NCBI GenBank assembly: GCA_963789265.1
Contig: CAWBKB010000001.1
Span: 1,536,001 to 1,600,000 of the forward strand
Length of the DNA: 64,000 bases
Reading direction: 5' to 3'
Source of the DNA: an uncultured delta proteobacterium
GTDB lineage: Bacteria > Desulfobacterota > Desulfomonilia > Desulfomonilales > Desulfomonilaceae
A program made the position numbers and the translations under genes. The notes beneath the pieces were generated by a model, which was not told where the DNA came from, searched no databases, and saw only the letters and a list, made by a program, of their open reading frames with translations. Below, piece after piece: positions 1 through 62,871 of this stretch. Positions within the stretch are counted from its first letter, which is position 1. Every line of letters starts with the position of its first letter.

Positions 1-384
1 TCCACACCATGCCCCGTAGGTCCTCAGGGACCCAGTGCGGCACCCAAGAGACTTAGCAAGTCTTTGTCCCTCTTAGGTGTTGCGACCTAAATGCAGGAGC
101 GATTCTTCCGTTTACCAAAACCGGTAAGGTCGTTAAGGGTTAAGTCCCGGCTTTTGTTTCCCAGGTGTTTCGTAGCCAGCCTTGTCAATCGTTCGCTGCC
201 GGACCTAACCGTGTCCAAATGTCCAGCACTGAAGTACCGCGCTAAAAACCGACCATACTGAAAACAACTTAGGTGTGTCTTTAAGTATAGACACCCTCAT
301 CCGGCTTCTTAGGTCAAAAAAACGGACTTAACCCCAAATTGGAATTGACGACAGTGAGGTTAATGGCATACTCTTAATTGCTAA

Positions 385-1326
385 ATGAATACCGTTTATC
401 GTTTTTCTAAGGAGCCCGATATGGCCGCACCGGAAAAGTCTCCACTCTTCTCAAGACTCCAAGAACTCCGCTCTCAGGAAGGCAAGGGCTGGGAAGAGAT
501 TGCCCATATCCTGGAAGAGGAGGGGTACGCAGAAAAGGGAAAGGCTCTGACCGCCAACACGCTCAGGAAACGTTATACGAGGTGGGGCAAGATTGAGACA
601 TCAGACAAGCCGCCCGTCGCATCGGAGCCGGAATCAAAGCAGGAACACGAGAGATCTGATTTCGAGCGGTTGCAGAAGAACAGGATGGATTCTCCACTCA
701 AAGGATTCGGGAGAGGCGGATCAGCCCCTGGTGGTTCCGTTGAGGACGCCATTGCCGGTCTCATAACCCTGAATAATCAACTGCTGGAACAAGTTCGGGA
801 ATCGAACAGCCTGATGCAGCGGTTGGAGAAACGATTAGAAGAGCAGGAATCTAAAACAAGCCATACCCAACATACCGACGAACAGCCCATCACCTCAAGA
901 GATTTGCTTGAATTGCTAAGGGAACTGGGCGCAGGGAGATTACAAATGATGCACATCGAAGAAGAAAGAAAGGATTACCCCTCCCGGGAGGAAGTCCTCC
1001 ACTTGCTGGAAGAGAAGGTGGAGGAAAAAGTGGATACCGAACTCAAAGTCATGCTCTCCGAGGAGGGAAGTTTTTCCAGGGAGCTTACCCACCTGATTGA
1101 CCAGAGACTGAAAAGTCTTTTTTCAGGTGGTGAACCCGTCGTTCAGACTCCACACGCCGGTCCCGGTCGCGGGTGGAAAGGGAAAACTCACAAGAAGTTC
1201 TCCGCCAGCCTGGAAGAAAGCTTATTTAATAGGGTGAAGAGTTTACCAGGGCAGTTTTCGGGGCATCTCTCCAATGCCTTGGAAGCCTACTTAGCGGTCA
1301 TGGGTAAAGGGGTAGACCAAGAGTGA
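385..1326 (+). CDS. Hypothetical DNA-binding protein (N-terminal HTH-like, coiled coil, C-terminal ribbon-helix-helix-like)
   Basis: 313-aa ORF; WEEIAHIL..TLRKRY N-terminus; KKFSASLEESLFNRVKSLPGQFSGHLSNALEAYL C-terminus. Confidence 0.6.
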   Translation: MNTVYRFSKEPDMAAPEKSPLFSRLQELRSQEGKGWEEIAHILEEEGYAEKGKALTANTLRKRYTRWGKIETSDKPPVASEPESKQEHERSDFERLQKNRMDSPLKGFGRGGSAPGGSVEDAIAGLITLNNQLLEQVRESNSLMQRLEKRLEEQESKTSHTQHTDEQPITSRDLLELLRELGAGRLQMMHIEEERKDYPSREEVLHLLEEKVEEKVDTELKVMLSEEGSFSRELTHLIDQRLKSLFSGGEPVVQTPHAGPGRGWKGKTHKKFSASLEESLFNRVKSLPGQFSGHLSNALEAYLAVMGKGVDQE

Positions 1327-1728
1327 TACGGGTCCTGCCCCCAGAGGAGATCAGCCATGCCAATGTTCCGATAGAGGGGTTCTAGGAGCATTCCTGGCAT
1401 CGCTGATCGTCCATATTAACTACTTGCAGTTTGAACAGGACTTCACAGGTTTTCCACCAGCCTTCAGGCAATCGGATTTTTTTAATTCTCTGCAAAAGCT
1501 TCCTCTGAAACAGCATGCTTTCCGGTTTTTCATTTCAACACCTCCACCGAACCGTACTACATCCTACTCATAATTTAGTCAGACAACCTGGTCAGTCAAT
1601 CCTCATTGGACGGTGTTAAGGCGGCGAACTAGTATGAATGAGTGCTTCTTAAAAATAGTGGCGCGCATCCTCTGCAAGTGGGAAGCTGATTCAAGATCGA
1701 TTTGACATGGTATGGTTGTTGAGGTAAC

Positions 1729-2737
1729 TTGGGAATACCGTTTTCTGTGGGAGGTGTTCTTTGGATACCACGACGACCGCGCTGCCAAGACCTGGTTCCG
1801 GCATCCTCACCCGCCACCTTCAATAGTGTCGATACAGACGAACTCCTCGCCGCCTTTCTTTCCGACAAATCTCCCAAAACCATAGAGGCGTACAAAAAGA
1901 GACCTGGAAGACTTCAGACAGTTCCTGGGAGCCGATGACAGGGATCAAGCCGCTCGTATCTTTCTTTCGGGAGGACTCCACAAAGCGAATCACACAGCTC
2001 TGAAATACAAGAATCACCTTGCAGACGACAAGAAGCTCCAACCCACAACGGTAAACCGAAAACTTGCGGCCCTGCGCAGCCTCACGGATATGGCGTACAC
2101 CCTCGGCATGATTAACTGGAAGGTGCGCGTTAAGAATCAAAAGGTCTTTGCTGCCGCTCGTGACACAAGAGGACCTGGAAAGTCCGGCGTACAAAAACTT
2201 CAGGAAGAGGTCTCTAAGCGAACGGATCCCAAGGGATTGAGGGATAAGGCTGTCCTCCATCTTCTTTACGATCTCGCTCTCCGCCGATCTGAGGTCGTCG
2301 GTCTTGACCTTGAAGATGTTGACCTTGAGAGAGGAACACTGCGAATCCTTGGTAAAGGGCGGCTCCAGAAGGAAACCCTGTCCCTCCCAACAAGGACAAG
2401 GAAGATTCTCTCGGAGTGGATGGCAGTCCGAGGAAATTGTGAAGGGGCGTTGTTTATAAACTTTCATCATAATCCGAAGATTCAAGGCAGCCGTCTCTCA
2501 GCCACAAGCCTGTACAGGATTATCCGTGACCTGGGAACACAAACGGGACAGAAGGTGCGTCCTCATGGGCTGCGTCACACAGCCATCAGCGAAGCTGTGC
2601 GGAAGGTGCAGGCAGTCGGAATGGACGTGACGAAAGTCCTCCAATTTTCAAGGCACAAGGATTTGAAGACGCTTCAGGTTTATATTGACTCTGTGGAGGA
2701 TGTTCAGGGTAAGATAGCGGAGTTGGTCGCTGGATAG
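1729..2737 (+). pseudogene. XerC/D-like tyrosine recombinase, frameshifted at the A5 run 1894-1898 (start uncertain)
   Basis: LRRSE, GKG, HGLRH, SRH..Y catalytic motifs; N-terminal KSPKTIEAYK joins DLEDFRQFL..TVNRKLAALRS after a +1 shift. Confidence 0.8.
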
Positions 2738-2768
2738 AAATTTGAATGAGCAGGGGAGGAAACACTAA

Positions 2769-3818
2769 ATGGCAGCCATTGATCAATTATTGAAATGGGC
2801 TAAAACTTCCGAACGCATGCACCAGATTATTCTGGCTCGCCTATTAAGAAGGACTGATCTACTGAGCTACGTCGGAATTACCGGTAAGCCGACCGATCTT
2901 GAAATCGAAACCCAACATCGACTTTACGATTTTACCATCACTCTCGATACCGGGCAGCGAGTTCATGCTGAACTCAAGGTCAACAGCAATTTGGGTGAGG
3001 ACCAGATCCAGCGGCAAGTCGCCGCTCTAAAAATGACTGCGCCAGAAGATATTCTCGCATACTTTCTCGTCGGAACGGCTCAATTCGTTTGGAATATTCA
3101 CAAATTAACTAACATCGCCACAGCAAACAACCCTAATCTGAAAAGCAGTTCCCTCATGATGGTGGATTCACCCATGATGCAAGCAGCATTGCACAAGATC
3201 CTTGGGCAGCCACTTTATAGCAACGATGACCGTGACTTGACAGTCGTTTATTTGAGCCATCTCCAAAAGATGGACCGGTCTTATGAGAAATATAAATCAC
3301 GCCCCTTGTTCCCCCGTTGGGACGGCGACCAGTGGTTCGGTTTCTATAATGCCTTAAATAAACAACCAGGTATATTTGCTCCCGGCAACAACATGTTTTA
3401 CGTTCCAAATCCGAGGGGTGGTTTCTTTGGATTCGCGTGGCACAGGATCGACCTACCGCAAAAAGGAGTTTCAGCATATCTACAGCTTGAAGAAAGCAAA
3501 TTGTGCCTGAAAGTATATGTGGAAAACCCTCAATTTCGCGGACAGTTCAGGGACAGGCTCTCAGGCATTGTTCTAGAAGCGTGGCAAGAGTTAAGAAACA
3601 GTGGGGGGATCACCATACAGATCCAAAGACCTTCAAGATTTGGGAGCGGCGAATACATGACGGTTGCTGAGATGCCTGGCGATTACCGTTGCAATGCAAG
3701 CGGACGAGACCCTCTGCGTCTCGACTTGGATTATGCTGTTGCTGCCTTGACCCAAGCACAAAATGTATTGGATGGAGCCGTTCGCCTCTGGACACAATCC
3801 AACATAGTGTTGGTATAG
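2769..3818 (+). CDS. PD-(D/E)XK superfamily nuclease-like protein
   Basis: 349 aa; E..YDF..HAELKVNS..DQ..R motif; GGAGG RBS. Confidence 0.6.
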   Translation: MAAIDQLLKWAKTSERMHQIILARLLRRTDLLSYVGITGKPTDLEIETQHRLYDFTITLDTGQRVHAELKVNSNLGEDQIQRQVAALKMTAPEDILAYFLVGTAQFVWNIHKLTNIATANNPNLKSSSLMMVDSPMMQAALHKILGQPLYSNDDRDLTVVYLSHLQKMDRSYEKYKSRPLFPRWDGDQWFGFYNALNKQPGIFAPGNNMFYVPNPRGGFFGFAWHRIDLPQKGVSAYLQLEESKLCLKVYVENPQFRGQFRDRLSGIVLEAWQELRNSGGITIQIQRPSRFGSGEYMTVAEMPGDYRCNASGRDPLRLDLDYAVAALTQAQNVLDGAVRLWTQSNIVLV

Positions 3819-4191
3819 TGACTTGATCGACACTTTATATGAACCAGGGTGGGAATCAGATTTACGTACCTTAACTCCCCTTCTGGTACGTAAAAACCCA
3901 TTATCAAACGCGGCTTTTTTGAGTCCGTATCCGATATTATCAAGAGCAGAAATCCGGGGGAAGCGTTCCCTCTCGAACCACTTGACCGAGTTCCTTCTCT
4001 TTCCAATGACCGTACCATCATGAGCGGCTTCCAAGCCTTTTCAGACGTGGAATATCCGTGACCGCCAGCCCTAACCGAGAGTATAATAGGTTAAAGAAAT
4101 TTGCCGTAGAAATGGTGGGAGCGTCTCGAATCGTTGCCATATCCCTGTTCGGTCGAACAGACAGACTCAAAGGTCCGGGGAGGCGAGCAAG

Positions 4192-5022
4192 ATGAGAACT
4201 GAAGAAGTCAAGCAGGTGGTCAAGGGCCGTTATGGTAAGTTCGCTGAAACAGGAGGGAACAAAGAGTCCTGTTGAGCCAGCAAACAAAAGCCCGGTTCGG
4301 GCTATGCAGTGGATCAGGGATTCTATGGAGAGGCAGAACTCTCCTCAATACCGGAACTGGCCCGCAACTTGTCCAGGGGATGCGGCAACCCAACCGGTTT
4401 CGCAAACCTTCAACCTGGGGAGACCGTTGTAGATTTTGGCTGCGGAGGCGGGATAGACGTTATCTTGGCTGCTCACAAGGTGGGTTCACAGGGGAAAGTG
4501 GTAGGGATAGATTTTGCCGAACAAATGATCGAGCAAGCGAAGCAGGCGGTTTCCAAGGCGGGATCACAAGACAGGAACATTGAACTTTACGTCGCGGATA
4601 TGGAGAAGACACAGATTCCAGAAAGTCTTGCTGATGTTGTCATTTCCAACTGCGTCATCAACCTATGCCCTGACAAGGACGCTGTGTACAAGGAAGCATT
4701 TCGTATCTTGACCCCCGGTGGTCGGATCGCCATCTCCGATATTGTTCTTACCCAAGATATTGATCCGAATCTTAGAGAGCGTTTTCAGTCAACCTGGGCG
4801 GGATGTTTGGGAGGGGCAATTCCTGAAGAGGACTACCTCCAGATGGTGAGCGAGGCGGGGTTCCACGATGTCCATATTGTCGTTGACCATACCCTTACCG
4901 CGGAAGAACTGGGGGCAATGGCTCGTTGTCCAGGAGAGGAATTCACGCCTGCCCCCGCGAAAGAGGATCTCTCAGTGGTGCAGGGGAAAGTGAAGAGCAT
5001 CAAGTTCACAGCCTTTAAGTGA
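4192..5022 (+). CDS. arsM: Arsenite S-adenosylmethionine methyltransferase, probable selenoprotein (TGA 4273-4275)
   Basis: RBS GGAGG, ATG 4192, MRTEEVKQVVKGRYGKFAE..SC-U in frame with SRGCGNP, VVDFGCGGGID, ISNCVINL, WAGCLGGA. Confidence 0.85.
4276..4307 (+). promoter_or_regulatory. Putative bacterial SECIS hairpin
   Basis: AGCCCG-GTT-CGGGCT (4289-4303) with a G-containing loop about 19 nt after the TGA. Confidence 0.65.
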
Positions 5023-5070
5023 CCCATGTAGAACAACACAATCGAGTTTTGCTCCGACCTGGAGACGTTC

Positions 5071-5367
5071 ATGGAATTCTACGAGGAGCCTCACCACTAC
5101 GAAAAAACCATTATCTCAGACCTACAAGGGGCTTGGGAGAATTTACGGGCAACGGTAGCCGACAATCATCCATTCCCGGAATCCGAAAGGCTCCTGTTCC
5201 ATATAGATGAAGGGATGAGCTGGGAAAGTGTCCGCAACCTGTCCCGGATGAGAAAGGCTCTGCTCCTGATTCAAAATATCGCGAGCATGAATCAGATGCC
5301 GGAGGAAGTGACCGAGGGGATAGAGGAGGTGCTGGGCATCTTGAGTCAGATACCGGAGCAACGATGA
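5071..5367 (+). CDS. Hypothetical protein
   Basis: 98-aa ORF with GGAG RBS; ATGA overlap with the next ORF. Confidence 0.6.
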   Translation: MEFYEEPHHYEKTIISDLQGAWENLRATVADNHPFPESERLLFHIDEGMSWESVRNLSRMRKALLLIQNIASMNQMPEEVTEGIEEVLGILSQIPEQR

Positions 5368-5558
5368 CTATCAAGGCAAGCGTAGCATTCTTCTTCTCCC
5401 ACGAGGGAGACCTGATCCAGGTCGCGGACAGTCACATCGCCAGGATTATCCGTCATCCTGAGAGATTTGGGTTGACGAAAGAAGAAATTCAAAGCATCTA
5501 TGAGATGCACGGAGAGAGGATCGGAGTTGGAGGCGATCTCGACAGGAACCCATCTTAA
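5364..5558 (+). pseudogene. Hypothetical protein, probably truncated
   Basis: 64 aa, coupled to the upstream ORF; HIARIIRHPERFGLTKEEI segment looks protein-like, then ends abruptly. Confidence 0.4.
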
Positions 5559-5663
5559 TGGTCATCAGCCGGTGGTGGAGAGCGGATTACTGTTGTTAAG
5601 TATCTGGCTATTGACTCTACTCAGCGTAGAGACAGCGTCCTATGAGGAAAAGAGGTAACCAAC

Positions 5664-5825
5664 ATGAAGGTGAACTTGATCAAGAACATAGGGTTTATCC
5701 TGCTTGCGATTTGGCTCATCGTTGGGGGCATATTGCAACTGGTCGGTGGTGCGAGTCTATCAATCGGCACTCTGCTGTCGATACTTGGTATCGTCGCTGG
5801 TGTCTTCATCTTGCTTGGTCTATAG
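5664..5825 (+). CDS. Small two-helix membrane protein (53 aa), absent from the ORF track
   Basis: GAGG RBS; MKVNLIKNIGFILLAIWLIVGGILQLVGGASLSIGTLLSILGIVAGVFILLGL. Confidence 0.7.
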   Translation: MKVNLIKNIGFILLAIWLIVGGILQLVGGASLSIGTLLSILGIVAGVFILLGL

Positions 5826-5977
5826 CGGTCTAGGGGTACGAGTCCTGGGACGGGGAGCATTTCGATACGCCAAGAACACAACTAATCCGCTGAGTAGGGT
5901 CAATAGTCAACTCTATAATTATCAACCGTGAAAAACCCCCGATTCTTCCTGGGACACTTAGGGGTACGGAGACCCGA

Positions 5978-6394
5978 ATGACTGATATGTCCGAGCCTGA
6001 AGTCGGTATTTTCTTCATTGTCGGAGACGAGTTGTTTAGAAAGTCCACCCCTCTCTGCGATGCTGAACTTTCCGACGACTCCCGGATTCATCTTGGCAGC
6101 CATAGAGCCTTCTGGGAAGAAATACGACGAGAAAAAGCGGTTCTGTCAGGTGTTCCTTATGATTTTTATCCGAGGGGTAGGGTGTTGTTCAGCGCGAACG
6201 ATGAGCGGTTCTGGGTTTACGTTGACCGGCCCACCCGTAAAGACCACGTAATGATTGTGAACATATTGAGTGAGTTCCATCTCCCGCAAGACAAGACTAA
6301 GATCCGTTGCGATCCTCAGTATAAGTGCCGTGCTTGCAATCCACACAACGTCGCTGACGCCATTGGCCTAGACATAGATGATTACCTGCCATAG
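5978..6394 (+). CDS. Hypothetical protein (GIF..H..W..PRGRV..YxCxxC type)
   Basis: 138-aa ORF with RBS; paralog at 8018-8380. Confidence 0.7.
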   Translation: MTDMSEPEVGIFFIVGDELFRKSTPLCDAELSDDSRIHLGSHRAFWEEIRREKAVLSGVPYDFYPRGRVLFSANDERFWVYVDRPTRKDHVMIVNILSEFHLPQDKTKIRCDPQYKCRACNPHNVADAIGLDIDDYLP

Positions 6395-6636
6395 AGGTGT
6401 CAGGGGACTCTACCTATATCCCACGGCCTGACAAAAATCTCCTGTGAGCCGATTACCGTCCTATTGGCGTACTACACCCCGTCCAAAATGCCCCACACAG
6501 CGCCTAGTTGGAACTTTTCGGTGATGTCCCTGCCAATGTTCATGAATTATTGTTTTTAAGTGAGGGGCTTAAACATTGCTCGATTCTTCTTGACTGTCCA
6601 AAGCGATATATGTAGAATGATAGATGTGGAGGTTTT

Positions 6637-7044
6637 ATGCCCGCTCTGTCACCCAAGAATTGCGTTGCTCCTGAGGTTTCGGCTTGGAGTATCAACCCCC
6701 AAAGAACACCTCAACCAAGAGTAACGATTGCTCTCGCAGAGCCACGGAAGAGACATACTCCAAAGCGCGAACTTGTTACCATAACGGTTACAAAGGAAGA
6801 TTATGCAAGACTCAAGGCTGTTGGAGGACCGCATCCGAGTTACATTGATATGGCCTTGCGTCATTATTTGCGTGTAATAAAGGAAACAGGGTCGTACCCA
6901 CAAGTAAACGACGCTGGATGGCGCAGGGGTCCTGTAATGACTTTTCTGTGCGCCATACCGAATCATCTCTCCGATGAAATCCGGCATCTCACCGGTCGCT
7001 TTGACAGCCACACAATTGAAGCCGTGCGCTTATACCTGCTTTGA
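6637..7044 (+). CDS. Hypothetical protein with two RHH-like repeats
   Basis: GGAGG RBS, TTGACT..TAGAAT promoter-like sequence upstream; 135 aa. Confidence 0.6.
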   Translation: MPALSPKNCVAPEVSAWSINPQRTPQPRVTIALAEPRKRHTPKRELVTITVTKEDYARLKAVGGPHPSYIDMALRHYLRVIKETGSYPQVNDAGWRRGPVMTFLCAIPNHLSDEIRHLTGRFDSHTIEAVRLYLL

Positions 7045-7525
7045 CACCTCGTTTCCTAAAAGCCATTTCGGGGACCTTCCGTTGCAAAGTTAACCAGCCG
7101 CTCCTGTTCTCATAACGGTATTAGCCCCGTCAGATCATAGGTGGTTGAACTAAAAAAGACGGGCCGCCCCATGAAACGTACGTGACGTTGTTACGAACAT
7201 GAAGTGGCCCTATTCCAATTCACCGAAGACTGGATGTACGCAAGAAAGGTAACAAGAATTTGGGGTCAAAGCAATTTGAAAATAGAACAACGACTCTTGT
7301 CCCTGGTACGAAGGACTTCTCACCATTCTTCATTAAAAAAGACTCCTGTGCGTTGCTTGGCACTCTCTGCACAAAGTGCAGCAGCACGCCTAAATCGCCC
7401 CACAGAACATCTCCGTCCCGCCTGACCAATTCTCCGTGGCTTTCTATATTGCTCATTGGTCGGCTCCCGTGATATAGTGCCAATCAGTCCATCCCCGCAC
7501 GCAACCCAATCATGAGACATAAGAC

Positions 7526-7936
7526 ATGGTTAAATCTGCCAAGGTCGCGAGGAAGTCCCTATCCAAATCTCGTAAACCGCAAATTCCAGAGGACGTAAAA
7601 TCTGAACTCTCCCTCAAGGCGCAAAAACTGGTCGAGCAGCACTTGAAGCCTGCGCATGTGGAACTGCCAGAAAACCCGCAGTGCAATTATATCTCTGACA
7701 TCTACACCAGATGGCATCGGGAGGAACTCTATTTCTGCGCCACGTATGTAGCTCCTTTTCCTGACGCTGTTTCCCCAACCTCTGAAGTCCGCTTTGCGAG
7801 AATGGGCTATTTAGGTAATGGAAAGTTTAGCCTGGCTTACAAGGGGCAGACCGGCAGGTGGTGCCAAATGTACCCGTGCCTGTCAATTCAAAAATGCCTC
7901 GAAGTCGTCCGGGACGAGCCTCATTTTATTCCCTGA
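7526..7936 (+). CDS. Hypothetical protein (DUF3024-like C-terminus)
   Basis: FARMGY.G.GKFSLAY..TGRW motif. Confidence 0.6.
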   Translation: MVKSAKVARKSLSKSRKPQIPEDVKSELSLKAQKLVEQHLKPAHVELPENPQCNYISDIYTRWHREELYFCATYVAPFPDAVSPTSEVRFARMGYLGNGKFSLAYKGQTGRWCQMYPCLSIQKCLEVVRDEPHFIP

Positions 7937-8017
7937 CCCGATTAGAAAACTAGACCCAGGTTCATCCCTTCTGACAGATATTTGTGGCTCCTCATAGCAA
8001 TAAAGGGGAATCCAAAC

Positions 8018-8380
8018 TTGTCGAAGAACTGCATCGGAATCTTCTACTTGATCAACGGACGTATCGTCTCCGAAAAAGCCCCCGTATCTTCGATTTAAAC
8101 CTCCGGTGCTGTCCGAGCCTACCCTCGCCAGCACTACGACCTGTGGACCGACCTTCAAAAGAAGGACCCCGATCTTTACGATTTGGACGGCTATTCTCTA
8201 CCCCGTGGGAGAGTCTGCTATAATGAGAAAAAGAAGAAATTCGAGGTCGTTGCTGATCGCCATATCCTGGATAAAGATGAGGCCATTGCTCGTATCATTC
8301 AGGACTTTCGTGTTGAGAAGTCTGAAGTCGTCTTCAAAGAAGACGAGAATTATCGCTGCTCCATCTGCGAAAATGGCTAG
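8018..8380 (+). pseudogene. Paralog of 5978-6394 with in-frame TAA at 8096-8098
   Basis: TTG start after AGGGG; IGIFYLING..(TAA)..HYDLW..LPRGRV..DENYRCSIC. Confidence 0.65.
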
Positions 8381-8422
8381 AGTAACGCTGACAGCTTAAT
8401 CTTCCGAGTCCTTCGCCATATT

Positions 8423-8439
8423 GTGCGAAACTTTCGCAC
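8423..8439. promoter_or_regulatory. Perfect inverted repeat, candidate enhancer-binding-protein site
   Basis: GTGCGAAA-C-TTTCGCAC about 110 bp upstream of the sigma54 motif. Confidence 0.5.
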
Positions 8440-8547
8440 TTCACGTGAAAACCCGCTCAAAACCGTGAAGGAATTGACCATCTTAAAGCCACGACAGATC
8501 ACCCCCATTATCAGTAATCCGCCAGGATATCAGGCTATATTCGTACT

Positions 8548-8563
8548 TGGCACTGTAATTGCT
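8548..8563 (+). promoter_or_regulatory. Sigma54 (-24/-12) promoter
   Basis: TGGCAC-TGTAA-TTGCT, canonical spacing. Confidence 0.75.
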
Positions 8564-8573
8564 TATAGAATGA

Positions 8574-8634
8574 GGCAACAACGTATATAATCCATACCCT
8601 TCTTAGCAATCCTCCTTTTGGATTGCTTTTTTTT
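8574..8634 (+). ncRNA. Candidate sigma54-dependent small RNA (~60 nt)
   Basis: Lies between the sigma54 promoter and an intrinsic terminator; no ORF. Confidence 0.55.
8605..8634 (+). terminator. Intrinsic terminator
   Basis: AGCAATCC-TCCTTTT-GGATTGCT followed by a T run. Confidence 0.8.
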
Positions 8635-9334
8635 GCTCTAAAACGGGACCACGGACTCGCTGGACCTTGCTCGGCTCTGCTAGACGGGATATCTCGACCT
8701 ATTGGGTGGGTCTCTTCCAGGTGTGTCTCATCTCGTAGCCGGTTCCTCCCACGACCAGCAAACCAAAACCTAGGGCTGTAATCCGCTAAACCGCTGTCAT
8801 CACCGTATCTTCCTACAAAGAGAAGTGGACCGAGGCTTGCTGACGGAATATCCGGGCATCCTAATCGACAGGTGACTTCGATCCTATGTTACCAGTTTTC
8901 CCGGTTTCCAGAAAATTGCTAAGAGGTTGGATGACCTCAAGATTGGCACGCCCGGACTATGGTCGCAGGACTCTTCATAACGGTGTGGCAGCGAAAAATC
9001 TTCTATCTTGGTAATACAGGTGCTGTTGACAACTTAAGGGATTTTGCACTGGGGCGATCAAGAGTAGATCGTCTTGTACTTCACGTCTAAAGAGCTTTAT
9101 CAAAAGAGTTCCTTGCCTTCTTTCGTAGAGCACGACCAGTTTGAAAAATTCTCTGACCGAGAAAAAGACCTTTAAGCATGTTAAACCAATGCGTTAAGCC
9201 GCTCAGGACAGGTCATGCGGACAGTAAATAGGTGCTAGGGGTAAAAAAGTACTTGACATTGGATCTACAAGTATGGTCTGTTAATTGACAGACTGGGTAA
9301 TAGGTAAGAAGTTGAACTTTGAAGGAGATGGAAC

Positions 9335-9745
9335 ATGGCAATTCAGGTCCTAATAGATGATAAGCATCGACACAGAGGGGACACGTACGTCAGCATAAAT
9401 CCGAAGCTGAACCGCCTCCTGTTGTACAAAAGGGCCTACGAGGACATGAAGAAAGCCTATGGAAAGGACATTGATCATGTCCTGGTCCTTTGGGACGATG
9501 AACGTCCCCATCTGTTTTGGATTCAGCCTTGCGAGGCCGACGTAGAGGGAGCCCGGAAGTTGGATACGCCAAGTGAGAATACGCGCACCCTCTCGATCAG
9601 GATGCTCCTCAGCAAACTTGGATGGAAAAAAGACAGAGGAACCGTGAGGCTGCCTCTCGATTGGGATAAGGATCAGAAGGCGGCGATCATAGATACCAGC
9701 AAGGCCGAAGAGGCACCCGGATCGGGACGTAAGAGAGGCAAATAG
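9335..9745 (+). CDS. Hypothetical protein
   Basis: 136 aa, AAGGAG RBS, TTGACA upstream. Confidence 0.7.
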   Translation: MAIQVLIDDKHRHRGDTYVSINPKLNRLLLYKRAYEDMKKAYGKDIDHVLVLWDDERPHLFWIQPCEADVEGARKLDTPSENTRTLSIRMLLSKLGWKKDRGTVRLPLDWDKDQKAAIIDTSKAEEAPGSGRKRGK

Positions 9746-9972
9746 AGAGAAGGACTGAAGAGAAAAGGCTGGATTACCGAACCTGATTGGAATCCACCCT
9801 GTAACAAAAAAATAGACCTTGCGCCGATTTGAAGCACACAGCTTGCTGGGCGCAGAAGAAATACAGGCTAAAGCGTGCATGGACCCGTCCAGCCGCAGAG
9901 CTTGGCGGGTTTTTGTTTTTGAAGGGTTGCTCGGGAGCCGCCGAACGGAGGCGGCAACCTGTGAGGGAGAAG

Positions 9973-10329
9973 ATGAGTTCCAACGTAATCCTGTTACCAA
10001 GGGTGATTCGACGCAGGGATGCAGCAGCATATCTGGGCATGGACAAGAATCGATTTGATCGAGAAGTCCGACCCTCCCTGACCGAATTCCCTATTGGGGA
10101 TCAGGGCGTTGGATTCGATAGGCTTGACTTGGACAACTGGTATGAAGAGTATAAGGCTCGCAACGGTCGTCCCGGCAAGCAGAAAGGAGCAAATAAGCTA
10201 TGGGACGAAAGAAAGTCGCCGGTCTCATCAACCGTAAAGGGATATGGCACCTCGACAAAGTTGTCCGAGGAAGAAGAGTTTGCGAAAGTACTGGCGAAAG
10301 TAACATCGAGAAAGCGGAAGAGTATCTAG
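9973..10329 (+). CDS. Excisionase-like HTH protein
   Basis: PRVIRRRDAAAYLGM..FDRLDLDNW; overlaps the integrase start. Confidence 0.7.
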   Translation: MSSNVILLPRVIRRRDAAAYLGMDKNRFDREVRPSLTEFPIGDQGVGFDRLDLDNWYEEYKARNGRPGKQKGANKLWDERKSPVSSTVKGYGTSTKLSEEEEFAKVLAKVTSRKRKSI

Positions 10330-11297
10330 CACGTAGAATTGAGGCGATCAGGCAAGCAGAGATTTACGGCGTGAGGCCGAAGAGAAGTTTTCGCCAGGCT
10401 GCAACTAAGTATTTGAAAGAGGCCACGAAGGCCAGTATAGGTCGAGATGCAGACCTACTGAAAGTATTGGAACCATTCATCGGGGACCTTCCCCTAGACT
10501 CCATCCACATGGGGAAGCTGCAGGCGTTTATTGTGAACCGTGAGGCTGCTGGGTGGAAAAAACGGACTATCAACTATGGCTTACAGGTGGTCAGGCACAT
10601 CCTCAACTTGGCTGTGAACGAATGGATAGACGAGTACGGTATGACTTGGTTGTCTCATACACGAAAGGTTAAGCTCCTCAAGGAAGACGACAAGAAGGAG
10701 CCGTACCCTCTGTCCTGGCAGGAGCAGGTACGCCTCTTTGACGAGTTGCCGCCTTATTTGGCGAAGATGGCACTATTCAAGGTCAATACGGGATGCCGGG
10801 ACCAAGAGGTTTGCAACCTCTTGTGGGAATGGGAAGTGCCCGTGCCTGAACTGAACACCTCTGTCTTTATCATCCCTGCCCACCTGGTTAAGAATCGGCA
10901 GGATCGACTGGTGGTGTTAAACCGGGCCGCTAAGGCAGTGGTTGAGGAAATGCGCGGAGTCCATCCTACACACGTGTTTTCCTACAAAGGTAAGCCCCTT
11001 CAAAGGATGTACAACCGGGCCTGGAGGGAAGGGCGTAAGCGTGCCGGACTCCCCCATATCCGGGTTCACGACTTGAAACATACCTTCGGGCGCAGGCTCC
11101 GATCTATCGGAGTGTCTTTTGAGGATCGGCAGGATTTGTTAGGCCACAAGTCCAGCAGGATCACAACCCACTATTCTCGGGCCGAACTGGCGAATCTCAT
11201 CTCCGCCTCGAACAGAGTGTGTGACAACGAGTCCCGCAAAAGTCCCGCACTGGTTATCTTGAAAAAGAAACCCCGCCTTGCCGTCGTCAACAACTAG
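10200..11297 (+). CDS. Tyrosine-type integrase
   Basis: NTGCRDQE, HDLKHTFG, LLGH..TTHY; adjacent to tRNA 3' end. Confidence 0.92.
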   Translation: MGRKKVAGLINRKGIWHLDKVVRGRRVCESTGESNIEKAEEYLARRIEAIRQAEIYGVRPKRSFRQAATKYLKEATKASIGRDADLLKVLEPFIGDLPLDSIHMGKLQAFIVNREAAGWKKRTINYGLQVVRHILNLAVNEWIDEYGMTWLSHTRKVKLLKEDDKKEPYPLSWQEQVRLFDELPPYLAKMALFKVNTGCRDQEVCNLLWEWEVPVPELNTSVFIIPAHLVKNRQDRLVVLNRAAKAVVEEMRGVHPTHVFSYKGKPLQRMYNRAWREGRKRAGLPHIRVHDLKHTFGRRLRSIGVSFEDRQDLLGHKSSRITTHYSRAELANLISASNRVCDNESRKSPALVILKKKPRLAVVNN

Positions 11298-11308
11298 GCG
11301 GGATTCTT
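11262..11308 (-). terminator. Probable tRNA-Phe terminator overlapping the integrase 3' end
   Basis: CCCGCCT..AGGCGGG stem with a T-rich tail on the minus strand. Confidence 0.55.
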
Positions 11309-11317
11309 AATGATTCG

Positions 11318-11393
<76 letters not shown>

Positions 11394-11458
11394 TCCAATG
11401 GCAGAGCATCATATATATGGAAGGGCATATCTGTCAACGAATTTCCGGGAGCGTCCGG

Positions 11459-11580
11459 GTATGCATTCAGTTACAGCCGGAATTTGCGGGTGGCTTCGTG
11501 GGGTGGGCTTTCTAGCCCGCCATTGAACAGGGGTTTCCCCGGCAGGCTGGAAAGCCTGCCCCACAAGACTGAATGGTTAC
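11459..11580. mobile_element. 122-bp MITE (family A) carrying a REP pair
   Basis: Ends GTATGCATTCAG/CTGAATGGTTAC; flanking 8-mers GCGTCCGG/ACGTCCGG; near-identical copy at 62750-62871. Confidence 0.85.
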
Positions 11581-11608
11581 ACGTCCGGAGGGCGGTTGCA
11601 CGCGGCCG

Positions 11609-13450
11609 TCACTTTTTAAGATAGTCGCGGGCAAGGTTGCGCACGCCCTTATTCTGTAACATGTGGAATGTGCGCATCCTTTTCACGTGTATAGGGTTGA
11701 GCGAGCCCAGAGGGATGTAAATTATTCTCTTCCCCATGCTCTTCGCCAACTTCTTCCATCGCATAGCCGGCGCCTTACGAGCGACATAAACCACTCCCGG
11801 CTTCTCTGAATAAACGATTCCCGCGACCAACAACCGTTCGTGCCGAGTACGCACAAAGTCGAATGCGGGATCGGTCCAAATATCGAACATTCTCAGCGGG
11901 GGATAAGACATCGCAAATCCGCCATGTTCCATTCGACTGATGCCCGGTCCCACGACCTCCGCTCCAGGCAATGTCGAATAAAAGGCCATGTCCGACTCCT
12001 GGGAGTGTTCACCAAGCCAGGTCATCTGAAACGGATAGCTGACAAACTTCTCGTCTTCATCGAAAATCACTACAATTGAGCCGAATTCCAGGCCGCCTTG
12101 ATTCTCTGTTTTGACGTAGATGCGATTCTCGTAAAATCTTCTCAGCGTCTGTCGAATGTCGGGTCCTTCACCGAAATCGGCAACAAACGGCTGCGCATCC
12201 GTCTGAGCTGTCTGCAGCAAGTGATTCGCGTGCTTCATGAGGGCATCGCCCCAACGTTCCACTTGCACATCCTCGGGCGGGTATGAGCAGATATCCAGCT
12301 CATTCGGATCGGCAGTCTCCCAATTGCGCTTGAGGTGTTCCCTCCACTTCGCGGTGTTGACGGCCTTCATTCTGTACTTCCTGGAAACATGGAAGAAGGT
12401 GCGTAGCTTCTTGTGCAGGACTATCTTGTGCCCGTGGAACATCAAGTTGTCCTCGTTCAAGAGCACCGCGGAAGGATCGAAAGGGTCGTTGGCCCAGGCA
12501 TACTCCGAGAGGAATTCGTGCACATAGTAACCGAAGTCTTCATCCATGGCCGAACGTGCAGCAGAGACAAGATGGTACAAATCCGGAAGTAACTCTCCCT
12601 TGTACGCAAGCCATTTCCTAAGAAATTTCGCCCAGGTGACCCGGACATAATTGGGTACCTCCTGGCGCGTCTGACGAGTGAAGTAACCAATTGCGGCCTC
12701 CATGAGCGACACGATCATATCATGGCGATTCTGCGGCGGATCCTCTCCAGGGTCTTTACGCCATTTCTCAAAGGCCTCGGTGATTCTGGGTATTTCAGTA
12801 AAGCCTTTTTTTAGGGAATCCGGATGGACTGGAGCCACAAGCGCAGCATTCACACCTGTTCTCATCAACGGGAGCGGCTGAGGTGCTTGGAGCCGTTCCA
12901 GTATCCCCGGAATGTGAGCAAGGCCGCCGACAAACAGGACCTTATTGTAATCACGGGCCGCGCCTTGTAAGCGTGAAACCATGAATGTCTCGCGTTGAGC
13001 ATTTCCCTCGTCTTGCCAGAGGAGGTCCTTGCCGTGAGACGAGACAGTCTCTATGAAAGTCTTTTGGCCGACCTTGTCGATCAGGTAAGCATCGGGTATG
13101 CGGTCCATAAACAACGGGTAACGCAGCGGAAGAGGATCTATGAACCAGACTGGGATTTTGTTTTCCAAAGCCGACCGTGCCGCCTCCTGGACACCGTCGG
13201 ACCCTTCCATTATGAGAACCGCATTTTCCTTCTCGGCAGTTTCATAGAGAATTACAGAATGATACGGAAGTCGTCGCACACCGGAGATAATTTCGTTGCG
13301 CAAAGCATTGGGTAGCTCAACGCAGATACAATCGGGCTTCTCGTTTCGGACATAAGTATTCACCAGGACCGAGAATTCAACCCGGTAGTGCAGGACCCCA
13401 ATGAGCGTAATGTTGCCGAACCTGACGAGATCAGACCAGTTTTGGCCCAT
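11609..13450 (-). CDS. Conserved hypothetical protein, partner of MoxR ATPase (TraB-like N-terminus)
   Basis: ~613 aa; PDCICVELP, RE.FM, VLFVGGLAH motifs; overlaps the MoxR stop. Confidence 0.7.
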   Translation of the reverse strand: MGQNWSDLVRFGNITLIGVLHYRVEFSVLVNTYVRNEKPDCICVELPNALRNEIISGVRRLPYHSVILYETAEKENAVLIMEGSDGVQEAARSALENKIPVWFIDPLPLRYPLFMDRIPDAYLIDKVGQKTFIETVSSHGKDLLWQDEGNAQRETFMVSRLQGAARDYNKVLFVGGLAHIPGILERLQAPQPLPLMRTGVNAALVAPVHPDSLKKGFTEIPRITEAFEKWRKDPGEDPPQNRHDMIVSLMEAAIGYFTRQTRQEVPNYVRVTWAKFLRKWLAYKGELLPDLYHLVSAARSAMDEDFGYYVHEFLSEYAWANDPFDPSAVLLNEDNLMFHGHKIVLHKKLRTFFHVSRKYRMKAVNTAKWREHLKRNWETADPNELDICSYPPEDVQVERWGDALMKHANHLLQTAQTDAQPFVADFGEGPDIRQTLRRFYENRIYVKTENQGGLEFGSIVVIFDEDEKFVSYPFQMTWLGEHSQESDMAFYSTLPGAEVVGPGISRMEHGGFAMSYPPLRMFDIWTDPAFDFVRTRHERLLVAGIVYSEKPGVVYVARKAPAMRWKKLAKSMGKRIIYIPLGSLNPIHVKRMRTFHMLQNKGVRNLARDYLKK

Positions 13451-14279
13451 CAATTGAGGCACGGTCTTCTCCGGTGATTTGTAGGAGTGATTGGTCAAGA
13501 GCCTTCCGTTCATCGAACTTCGAATCGGATTTTATCAATCTATGAGCGTACCTGGCGATGTTCAGTCCGTCGCGGATGCTCAAATCCTCGTCTCTTGTGT
13601 GCGATTGCTGAAGTATGGCAACCACCTGGCGGATGAGATCATCGGACGGCCCATCCAGCTTGCCCCTGAGGATGCGATATTCTTCGTCTCGGGTCGGGAA
13701 ATCCATGTGTATGGCAGGCTGAAGTCGAGAATGAATGTATTCGGGGACCTCGAAGGTGGAAGCATCTTCGTTCATTGTAACACATACCCTGAATTCGGGT
13801 CGTGCCTTGATCTCGACTCCGGCGACTATCGAGTACACGCTGCGCCGCATGTCCAGAAGAGGGGCGATTGATGCCCAACTTTTTTCACTCATTCTGTTGC
13901 CTTCATCGAGGAGGCAGATTCCGCCGCGTACCATGGCCGTGACCAGTGGCGAAGCCATGTACCGAATTTTATTGTTGTCTGCTATGACTGGTGACACGAT
14001 GAGATCCTCGGGCTTGGTGTCAACGGTACACTGGGTGATGTACAGATCCTGTTTCATCTCCTTGGCGGCCGTGATCGCCAGAGAGGTCTTCCCAACGCCG
14101 GGCTTCCCCAATATTCTGGGCTGCATAGGTGGATCGAAGTCGTCCTCGGACCATGCAGCCAGCAGTTGCGTGAGGGGCTCTTTCATCCCCACCCATTCCA
14201 CCTCCAGTTCAGGTGGATCTACCAGATAAATATCCACGCCTTTCGAGGTAATCTTGTCCAAGTTCTTGGTCATTTTCAT
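13431..14279 (-). CDS. MoxR-family AAA+ ATPase
   Basis: GKPGVGKT Walker A, LLDEGNR Walker B. Confidence 0.88.
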   Translation of the reverse strand: MKMTKNLDKITSKGVDIYLVDPPELEVEWVGMKEPLTQLLAAWSEDDFDPPMQPRILGKPGVGKTSLAITAAKEMKQDLYITQCTVDTKPEDLIVSPVIADNNKIRYMASPLVTAMVRGGICLLDEGNRMSEKSWASIAPLLDMRRSVYSIVAGVEIKARPEFRVCVTMNEDASTFEVPEYIHSRLQPAIHMDFPTRDEEYRILRGKLDGPSDDLIRQVVAILQQSHTRDEDLSIRDGLNIARYAHRLIKSDSKFDERKALDQSLLQITGEDRASIDGPKLV

Positions 14280-62749: not shown

Positions 62750-62871
62750 GTGTGCATTCAGTTACAGCCGGAATTTGCAGGTGGCTTCGTGGGGTGGGCT
62801 TTCTAGCCCGCCATTGAACAGGGGATTCCTCGGCAGGCTGGAAAGCCTGCCCCACAAGACTGAATGGCTAT
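62750..62871. mobile_element. 122-bp MITE family A
   Basis: Near-identical to 11459-11580; 8-bp direct repeat ATTGCTTT. Confidence 0.88.

Follow-up and report, generated by a model that had tools for sequence, protein, structure and literature searches.

A widely mis-annotated selenoprotein gene of the ArsM family, with a predicted selenocysteine at the first conserved catalytic cysteine, on a tRNA-Phe island of an uncultured Desulfomonilaceae bacterium

We have analyzed a gene of the ArsM (arsenite methyltransferase) family in a 64,000-nucleotide stretch of DNA, here called the window, from an uncultured delta proteobacterium of the Desulfomonilaceae (GenBank assembly GCA_963789265.1, contig CAWBKB010000001.1, positions 1,536,001 to 1,600,000). 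The reading frame from ATG 4192 is open for 27 codons, meets a TGA at codon 28 and is then open again to the terminal TGA at 5020-5022. A mechanical list of open reading frames (ORFs) holds only the part from GTG 4309 to 5022 (237 amino acids), which is a truncation artefact. An earlier, sequence-only reading of this DNA had proposed that the internal TGA encodes selenocysteine (Sec), and all of the elements to which it pointed, namely a ribosome-binding site with ATG 4192, an in-frame TGA, a listed ORF that starts only at 4309 and the hairpin AGCCCG-GTT-CGGGCT, are present. On the comparative sequence evidence given below, this TGA almost certainly encodes Sec, at the position of the first catalytic cysteine of the family. 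The features of the gene are as follows.

4177..4183, plus strand: Shine-Dalgarno-like GGGGAGG, 8 nt ahead of ATG 4192, read directly from the sequence
4192..5022, plus strand: full coding sequence of the predicted Sec-containing ArsM-family methyltransferase, 276 codons plus stop, by translation
4270..4275, plus strand: TGT-TGA, predicted Cys27-Sec28 (TGT 4270-4272; TGA 4273-4275, codon 28), with Sec at the first conserved catalytic cysteine
4289..4303, plus strand: hairpin AGCCCG-GTT-CGGGCT of selenocysteine insertion sequence (SECIS) type, 6-bp stem, GUU loop, 13 nt after the UGA
4381..4383, plus strand: codon of Cys64 in a GCGNP motif, equivalent to CmArsM Cys72 (phmmer against 4kw7 and 4fr0)
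4651..4653, plus strand: codon of Cys154 in an SNCVINL motif, equivalent to CmArsM Cys174
4804..4806, plus strand: TGT codon of Cys205 in a GCLGGA motif, equivalent to CmArsM Cys224, the 'UxxG' site
5020..5022, plus strand: terminal TGA, an ordinary stop (at this codon the orthologous loci L052 and L053 have a stop other than TGA)

With Cys substituted for Sec, the best NCBIfam match of the product is to NF008823 (arsenite methyltransferase), at 252.8 bits. Residues 2-244 align with profile positions 3-243, and the alignment spans the TGA without a break. A Pfam Methyltransf_31 match of 107 bits and a GxGxG-type motif (VVDFGCGGG) identify a class I S-adenosylmethionine (SAM)-dependent methyltransferase domain. 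A second Sec at the terminal TGA, of the 'UXX-star' type (TGA-CCC-ATG-TAG), was considered and rejected on account of the stops in L052 and L053; other orthologues extend a few residues past this codon, with unrelated tails and varied ends.

The best 120 database matches to the product were examined. Among these, 66 are full-length and 54 begin just after the TGA. The residues at codons 27-28 of the full-length homologues are CC in 49, CW in 12, SC in 3, CS in 1 and CP in 1, the last being an alignment shift. The site was also examined at the DNA level in a set of 40 rows, comprising the window's own locus, two loci from relatives and 37 named contigs of metagenome-assembled genomes. Codon 28 is TGA in 29 of these rows (28 distinct), in the context C-U-P-S-K. 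Eight rows carry a Cys codon, TGT or TGC (L074, L077-L079, L081, L082, L085 and L086), two archaeal rows have a single Cys, and one does not reach the site. A 'Cys-Trp' protein was also used to seed a metagenome scan, which yielded 80 loci, 59 of them covering the N-terminus; here codon 28 is TGA in 58, TGT in 1 and TGG in none. The loci with TGA are spread over several phyla. The pairing of Cys with TGA that had been predicted for codon 28 is thus found both in the full-length proteins and in the genome and metagenome loci.

The 12 homologues annotated with Cys-Trp at codons 27-28 are what might favour a read-through without Sec, in which the TGA is recoded as Trp or Gly or is suppressed by a near-cognate tRNA. 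TGG occurs at codon 28 neither in the metagenome loci nor in any of the genome loci. No exact DNA for one of the Cys-Trp proteins, P0005, was found among the first 16 metagenome loci under translation table 4 or table 11, and the loci closest to it (86% identity) carry TGA; with TGA in the closest loci and TGG in none, the Trp is a gene-caller artefact. The window gene itself also ends in TGA where orthologues use other stops, a complete Sec system is encoded in the genome, and a conserved hairpin lies at SECIS distance. Read-through of this kind is accordingly regarded as extremely improbable. The clade has been systematically miscalled: besides the 54 of 120 best relatives that are cut at the TGA, 12 more carry the false Trp. 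As a result of these miscalls, surveys of the potential for arsenic methylation in soils, peat and sediments can be expected to see a protein without one of its catalytic residues.

The codons 5' of the TGA are, on their substitution pattern, evolving as coding sequence. In a comparison of the 27 distinct Sec forms, codon positions 1, 2 and 3 show 0.205, 0.205 and 0.517 differences per site in codons 2-27, close to the 0.251, 0.202 and 0.523 of codons 40-45. An ATG stands at the same start codon in 27 of 27 distinct Sec-form orthologues, and none of the 27 has an in-frame stop in codons 1-27. In a phylogenetic tree the 27 Sec forms, from several phyla, group together with a single Cys form on a long branch, and 6 Cys forms lie outside this group (support 93/91). 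These results bear on whether the TGA could be a real stop, so that the locus would be a pseudogene, or would make a 237-residue enzyme from GTG 4309 without the N-terminal arm, the 27 upstream codons being non-coding or a separate small peptide. The mechanical ORF does begin at 4309, as do 54 of the 120 best homologues, and methylation of MAs(III) is, according to PMC6138428, still possible for an ArsM that lacks Cys44 and Cys72. Such a stop would have to be reconciled with a TGA at exactly this codon in 28 distinct genome and 58 metagenome loci, with the coding pattern and conserved ATG starts upstream, and with an N-terminus that aligns with the family profile and with the Cys-form homologues. 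A product from 4309 would moreover keep Cys64, so that truncation removes only one member of the redox pair. We consider a real stop very improbable.

The sequence-only reading had wanted the TGA confirmed in reads, and this was obtained in part. One contig, X1, which may come from the source sample itself, is identical to the window DNA and spans the TGA. Two contigs from two other studies, X2 (2,178 nt) and X3, also span it, and none of their listed differences falls at 4273-4275. X15, a 151-nt contig of a relative from an RNA library, also runs across the TGA; it has 13 differences and is not counted as evidence of expression; the RNA runs each contained at most 0.11 of the sampled words. 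Two points weigh against assigning Sec to codon 28 from these data. Beyond the listed differences lie 25 more, so the TGA in X2, X3 and X15 is not proven and these contigs support it weakly; and the incorporation of selenium is something that we infer from sequence.

A SECIS-type hairpin just 3' of the UGA had likewise been claimed, and its conservation is evident from the comparison of loci. In an alignment of 28 sequences (A1), 92.9% of the cells of the 6-bp stem are paired, and 2 pairs are changed on both sides. Neither this pairing nor the covariation score was reached in any of 500 shuffles, and pairing in slid controls was 11-42%. The set was then enlarged to 87 Sec loci, equal to 73 distinct segments, in which the hairpin was scored as present if it had at least 5 stacked pairs and a loop at the same distance. 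By this measure it is kept at a fixed distance in 70 of 73 distinct Sec copies. GU is found in 70 of 70 loops, and there are 19 distinct stem sequences among the 70 copies, in which C-G pairs have been exchanged for U-A and for G-C. The codons that bear the hairpin (29-39) show 0.199, 0.147 and 0.295 differences per site at positions 1, 2 and 3 among the distinct Sec-form loci, and this lowered third-position change is the synonymous-site constraint expected from an RNA signal. The median best hairpin is -9.65 kcal/mol for 28 Sec forms versus -6.65 kcal/mol for 8 Cys forms.

Several results count against the hairpin as a SECIS element. The fold of the single 61-nt sequence has a z-score of -0.78, with 40 of 200 shuffles folding equally well; a single fold that is no better than chance makes the hairpin signal a comparative one. 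RNAalifold on the 28-sequence alignment did not return this hairpin, and gave a weak alternative with 7 pairs at -3.46 kcal/mol. Five sequences fold one base out of register, with a 7-bp stem and a four-base loop, and this shift may explain the RNAalifold result. Rfam searches of 4150-4450 and 3980-4230 found no SECIS or leader family and gave only a spurious snoRNA match (E = 1.4). A terminator scan assigns the same palindrome to the minus strand, with 4303-4289 as the stem and a T-rich tail after it. The Cys-form control is also partial, since two of its eight members, L085 and L086, fold as strongly as the Sec forms.

From the terminator call, the non-significant single fold and the conservation of the Pro-Gly-Ser-Gly (PGSG) peptide, by which part of the sequence conservation could be at the protein level, it might be argued that the hairpin is no SECIS and is instead either a chance GC-rich palindrome arising from these codons or a minus-strand intrinsic terminator. 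No minus-strand gene runs into it, only mechanical ORFs of 61-89 amino acids being present on that strand. The stem shows compensatory changes while the peptide also varies (P to A with a matching change of the Ser codon), the synonymous constraint lies in exactly these codons, and the PGSG stretch is not conserved in the Cys-form homologues. There is thus very little probability that the hairpin has one of these other origins, and a SECIS function remains our reading of it. The two strongly folding Cys forms, L085 and L086, are homologues near the Sec clade, with hairpins of -10.9 and -12.9 kcal/mol in the SECIS-equivalent region that may be relics of a Sec-to-Cys conversion or may be chance in GC-rich DNA. 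Two metagenome contigs, L178 and L179, hold Sec-form copies with an extra in-frame stop about 15 codons past the TGA and a weakened hairpin, and these may be decaying copies.

The gene had been said to depend on selA, selB, selC and selD of the host, and all four were found in the host genome (6.06 Mb, 9 contigs). The tRNA-Sec gene (selC) scores 71.3 bits and has the anticodon tca, while selA, selB and selD score 594.5, 386.3 and 359.6 bits, respectively. Each of the four exceeds its curated cut-off, and none is on the contig that carries the island described below. The host selD (G000:C7:193442-194362) has one in-frame TGA of its own, so the selenophosphate synthetase of this host is itself a selenoprotein.

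The position of Sec28 in the family was examined by alignment. The five best matches among solved structures (Protein Data Bank, PDB) are all arsenic methyltransferases. In the phmmer alignment with Chlamydomonas ArsM (5evj), Sec28 pairs with Cys46 and Cys27 with Ala; a local TSAC motif is common to the CmArsM and CrArsM structures. In the family alignment A2, position 28, unlike position 27, belongs to the columns with a conservation of at least 90%, and Cys64, Cys154 and Cys205 are invariant. All four family-defining cysteine positions (Sec28, Cys64, Cys154 and Cys205) are therefore kept. Against this assignment, CmArsM Cys44 falls one residue away from the Cys27-Sec28 pair in a profile alignment, where the stretch concerned is gapped and of low confidence. 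The N-terminal 69 residues alone found no match in the PDB at E up to 10. Cys27 is present in 25 of 27 distinct genome loci and in 57 of the 59 metagenome loci that cover the N-terminus. It is replaced by Gly in 2 genome loci and by Arg in 1 metagenome locus, all of them Sec forms, and by Ser in some Cys forms; Cys27 being replaceable, the Cys-Sec dyad is not essential.

According to PMC6138428, the first methylation by ArsM requires all four cysteines. The metalloid is bound by Cys174 and Cys224; Cys44 is the reductant of the As(V) intermediate on the enzyme and ends up in a disulfide with Cys72 that is recycled by thioredoxin. From this published role and the position of Sec28 at that of Cys44, Sec28 would be an electron donor, and possibly an As ligand. 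In the mechanism that we propose, the SelA, SelB, SelD and tRNA-Sec of the host would decode UGA codon 28 under the direction of the hairpin 13 nt downstream. The Sec28 selenol could then take over the task of Cys44 and reduce the enzyme-bound methyl-As(V) intermediate, after which its partner in a selenenylsulfide would be Cys64 or, possibly, the neighbouring Cys27. Formation and re-reduction of such a selenenylsulfide would be expected to be faster than for a disulfide. The natural occurrence of Sec at the position equivalent to Cys44 speaks for the electron-donor role that the disulfide-cascade model proposes for this residue, and the protein provides a selenium-labelled natural variant that should be useful for kinetic and spectroscopic tests.

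According to reviews, Fomenko and colleagues in 2007 reportedly used the logic that Cys/Sec pairs flag redox-active catalytic cysteines.

The sequence-only reading went on to describe a Cys-Sec ArsM that links selenium supply to arsenic methylation. The Cys-Sec part stands; the arsenic substrate and the selenium link are suggested by homology only. Arsenic is the substrate that we favour, with modest confidence, on the basis of sequence relationships. Several findings weigh against it. The NF008823 score is 10 bits below the curated cut-off of 263 bits, and for this reason the gene is filed here as ArsM-family or ArsM-like and not as a proven arsenite methyltransferase. No gene for ArsR, ACR3, ArsB or ArsC is adjacent to it in the window, in agreement with the earlier statement that no arsR lies beside it, and none occurs among 139 neighbouring ORFs of 27 orthologous Sec-form loci. 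The ACR3 gene of the host lies about 0.8 Mb away. Solitary arsM genes are common.

The same score and the same lack of ars genes could also be explained by a genuine selenoprotein of ArsM fold whose substrate is not arsenite but a different soft metal or metalloid, or a compound with a thiol or selenol group. Three Sec-form orthologues fit this explanation in lying beside genes of corrinoid methyl transfer: L071 adjoins a RACo activase gene, L080 an MtrA-like gene, and L087 genes for a B12-binding protein and a URO-D-like methyltransferase. Such a substrate is, in our estimate, rather unlikely, given that all four family-defining cysteine positions are kept, that NF008823 leads the NCBIfam matches by 75 bits, and that the five best structural matches are arsenic enzymes.

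A Sec-containing arsenite S-adenosylmethyltransferase is reportedly due to Fomenko et al. 2007 (Science 315:387), to whom reviews credit it. Selenoprotein forms of ArsM (Sec-ArsM) are in any case well documented, and the novelty implied by the sequence-only reading was too high. Eight Sec sequences are given in a 2008 GOS analysis (PMC2398784), Sec-ArsM is counted in 39 organisms in 2016 (PMC5029168), and it appears again in the tables of two reviews (PMC9312934 and PMC13188914), the second of which gives the motif as UxxG and credits Fomenko et al. 2007. In the available portions of these two review tables, UxxG is the sole Sec site listed for the ArsM family. Our literature search found no N-terminal Sec site described for an ArsM, although Fomenko 2007, Haft & Tolstoy 2025 (PMC12013261) or supplements may hold one. 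The Sec-ArsM family is therefore already established, and only the position of the Sec appears to be uncatalogued. We regard the gene as a genuine selenoprotein gene that is widely mis-annotated. Its family is known, and the catalytic position of its Sec is absent from the catalogues examined; its substrate and chemistry are those that we infer above.

The catalogued Sec-ArsM (PRK11873/NF008823, UxxG) resembles the window gene in family, in the replacement of a catalytic Cys by Sec, in the in-frame TGA with a hairpin just downstream, and in its occurrence, which is largely in selenoprotein-rich anaerobes. They differ in the site: the catalogued proteins have Sec at GC(L/I)xGA (Cm Cys224), whereas the window protein has Cys205 there and its Sec at the Cm Cys44 position. 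Related genomes do have paralogues with a TGA at the UxxG site, the position of Cys205 (L036, L038, L043, L044 and L049). Each of these has its own hairpin-prone sequence after the TGA, and both types of Sec-ArsM thus occur in this bacterial family.

The crystallised CmArsM (4fr0, 4fs8, 4kw7) and CrArsM (5evj) have the same SAM-binding Rossmann domain and the same four conserved cysteine positions as the window protein, and by analogy may share with it the disulfide-cascade chemistry proposed in PMC6138428. The window protein differs from them in having Sec for the first Cys, an extra Cys27, and a length of 276 amino acids versus 377-387 residues in the crystallised chains. A homologous methyltransferase domain, covering residues ~4-233, is also found in the fused selenoprotein families NF041536 (ArsM/DUF2284), NF041537 (ArsM/AhpD) and NF047649 (methyltransferase/UXPK-star). 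Membership in these families was rejected, since the scores against the three fused models are 177.2 bits (cut-off 510), 174.4 bits (cut-off 575) and 166 bits (cut-off 460), and the window protein, unlike theirs, has no fused second domain and no C-terminal U-x-P-K tail. In the table of PMC13188914 the methyltransferase Sec of these families is again listed as UxxG.

Adjacent Cys and Sec residues occur in other folds. Mammalian thioredoxin reductase ends in Gly-Cys-Sec-Gly, and it shares the adjacent pair with the window protein but differs from it in fold and in the position of the pair. The same likeness and difference apply to the 'CU' selenoproteins SaoC and MbdU, as named in PMC13188914.

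The surroundings of the gene are those of a mobile island, as the sequence-only reading had also claimed, and the relevant features are these.

2090..2737, plus strand: short integrase-family ORF of 215 amino acids inside the island, Pfam Phage_integrase 85 bits
10200..11297, plus strand: tyrosine recombinase (integrase), Pfam Phage_integrase 61 bits, 20 nt from tRNA-Phe
11318..11393, minus strand: tRNA-Phe(GAA), the island attachment site, found by ARAGORN, intact and the only tRNA-Phe gene of the genome

The 3' 45 nt of the tRNA-Phe (11318-11362) are repeated exactly, in direct orientation, 86,010 nt to the left and outside the window (G000:C1:1461308-1461352), where ARAGORN finds no tRNA. 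With its tRNA border, adjacent integrase and far direct repeat, the segment is a tRNA-integrated genomic island of about 86 kb, and the arsM-like gene lies 6.3 kb inside it. The GC content is about 0.49 over 1-10 kb of the window, versus about 0.535 over 11-18 kb. An integrase 20 nt from an intact tRNA-Phe, a 45-bp repeat and lower GC are all shared with other tRNA-integrated islands carrying tyrosine integrases. In 5 of 6 congeners the right flank is conserved, with 81-88% identity. The outer left flank differs from that of a typical island in being another integrase-like gene: beyond the far repeat, G000:C1 ~1460745-1461300 (L112 3445-4000) is integrase-like and ~66% identical to window 10782-11308, and it is not conserved as a left flank. 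No empty site can for that reason be demonstrated in relatives, and the arrangement suggests tandem islands stacked at tRNA-Phe. In the congener G006:C22 there is also integrase-like DNA next to the tRNA-Phe flank.

Within the island, the arsM-like gene stands as a single-gene cassette that brings along its own upstream region. An orthologue is present in 1 of the 6 congeners searched (75% identity), and another genus has a copy with 87% identity. Nucleotide similarity to the closest orthologous loci is confined to a segment from 4000/4055 through 5020-5167, starting at 4055 with L052 and L053 and at 4000 with L051. A tblastx comparison of window 1-14000 with 39 orthologous loci found no flanking gene in common, the only matches outside the gene being two short ones of low value. 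At the left edge of the similarity lies the following element.

4058..4087, plus strand: promoter-like GTGACC-18 nt-TATAAT, about 105 nt 5' of the start codon, a consensus match only

This element has 10 of 12 consensus matches, and 3 such sites were found versus 0.9 expected. To be functional, an island-borne gene of this kind would need a host that both encodes Sec machinery and is supplied with selenium, and it would couple a horizontally acquired trait to the availability of selenium.

Taken over all of the evidence, the locus probably encodes an intact, 276-residue Sec-containing methyltransferase of the ArsM/AS3MT family that is borne on an island. A bolder proposal, which we put forward as speculative and rather doubtful, is that Cys27-Sec28, carried on a flexible arm as in thioredoxin reductase, works by itself as a centre of redox chemistry and capture. 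It would bind As(III) through an As-Se bond, hand it to Cys154 and Cys205 and then reduce methyl-As(V), closing as a vicinal or a Cys64-linked selenenylsulfide. The gene would then represent a second, independently evolved class of Sec-ArsM that spreads, as a promoter-bearing single-gene cassette, only among Sec-decoding hosts, and the natural Cys/Sec pair of this class would be evolutionary evidence for a redox-active first conserved cysteine in all ArsM/AS3MT enzymes.

Two minor observations concern the neighbouring DNA. In the segment 5026-5367, which begins 4 nt past the stop of the arsM-like gene, an ATG meets TAG at the very next codon, a place at which the frame is open, with TGG, in the closest orthologous locus (L051/L022). 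Conservation between the window and that locus extends over the next ~40 codons, and the small downstream ORF at 5071-5367 (98 amino acids, no Pfam match) may have lost its original start. Finally, a dispersed repeat of ~122 nt at window 11459-11581 (also at ~62750-62870) has at least 40 copies in the genome, with 81-98% identity; one copy lies just past the tRNA-Phe and another (G000:C3:261691-261814) about 210 nt from the tRNA-Sec.

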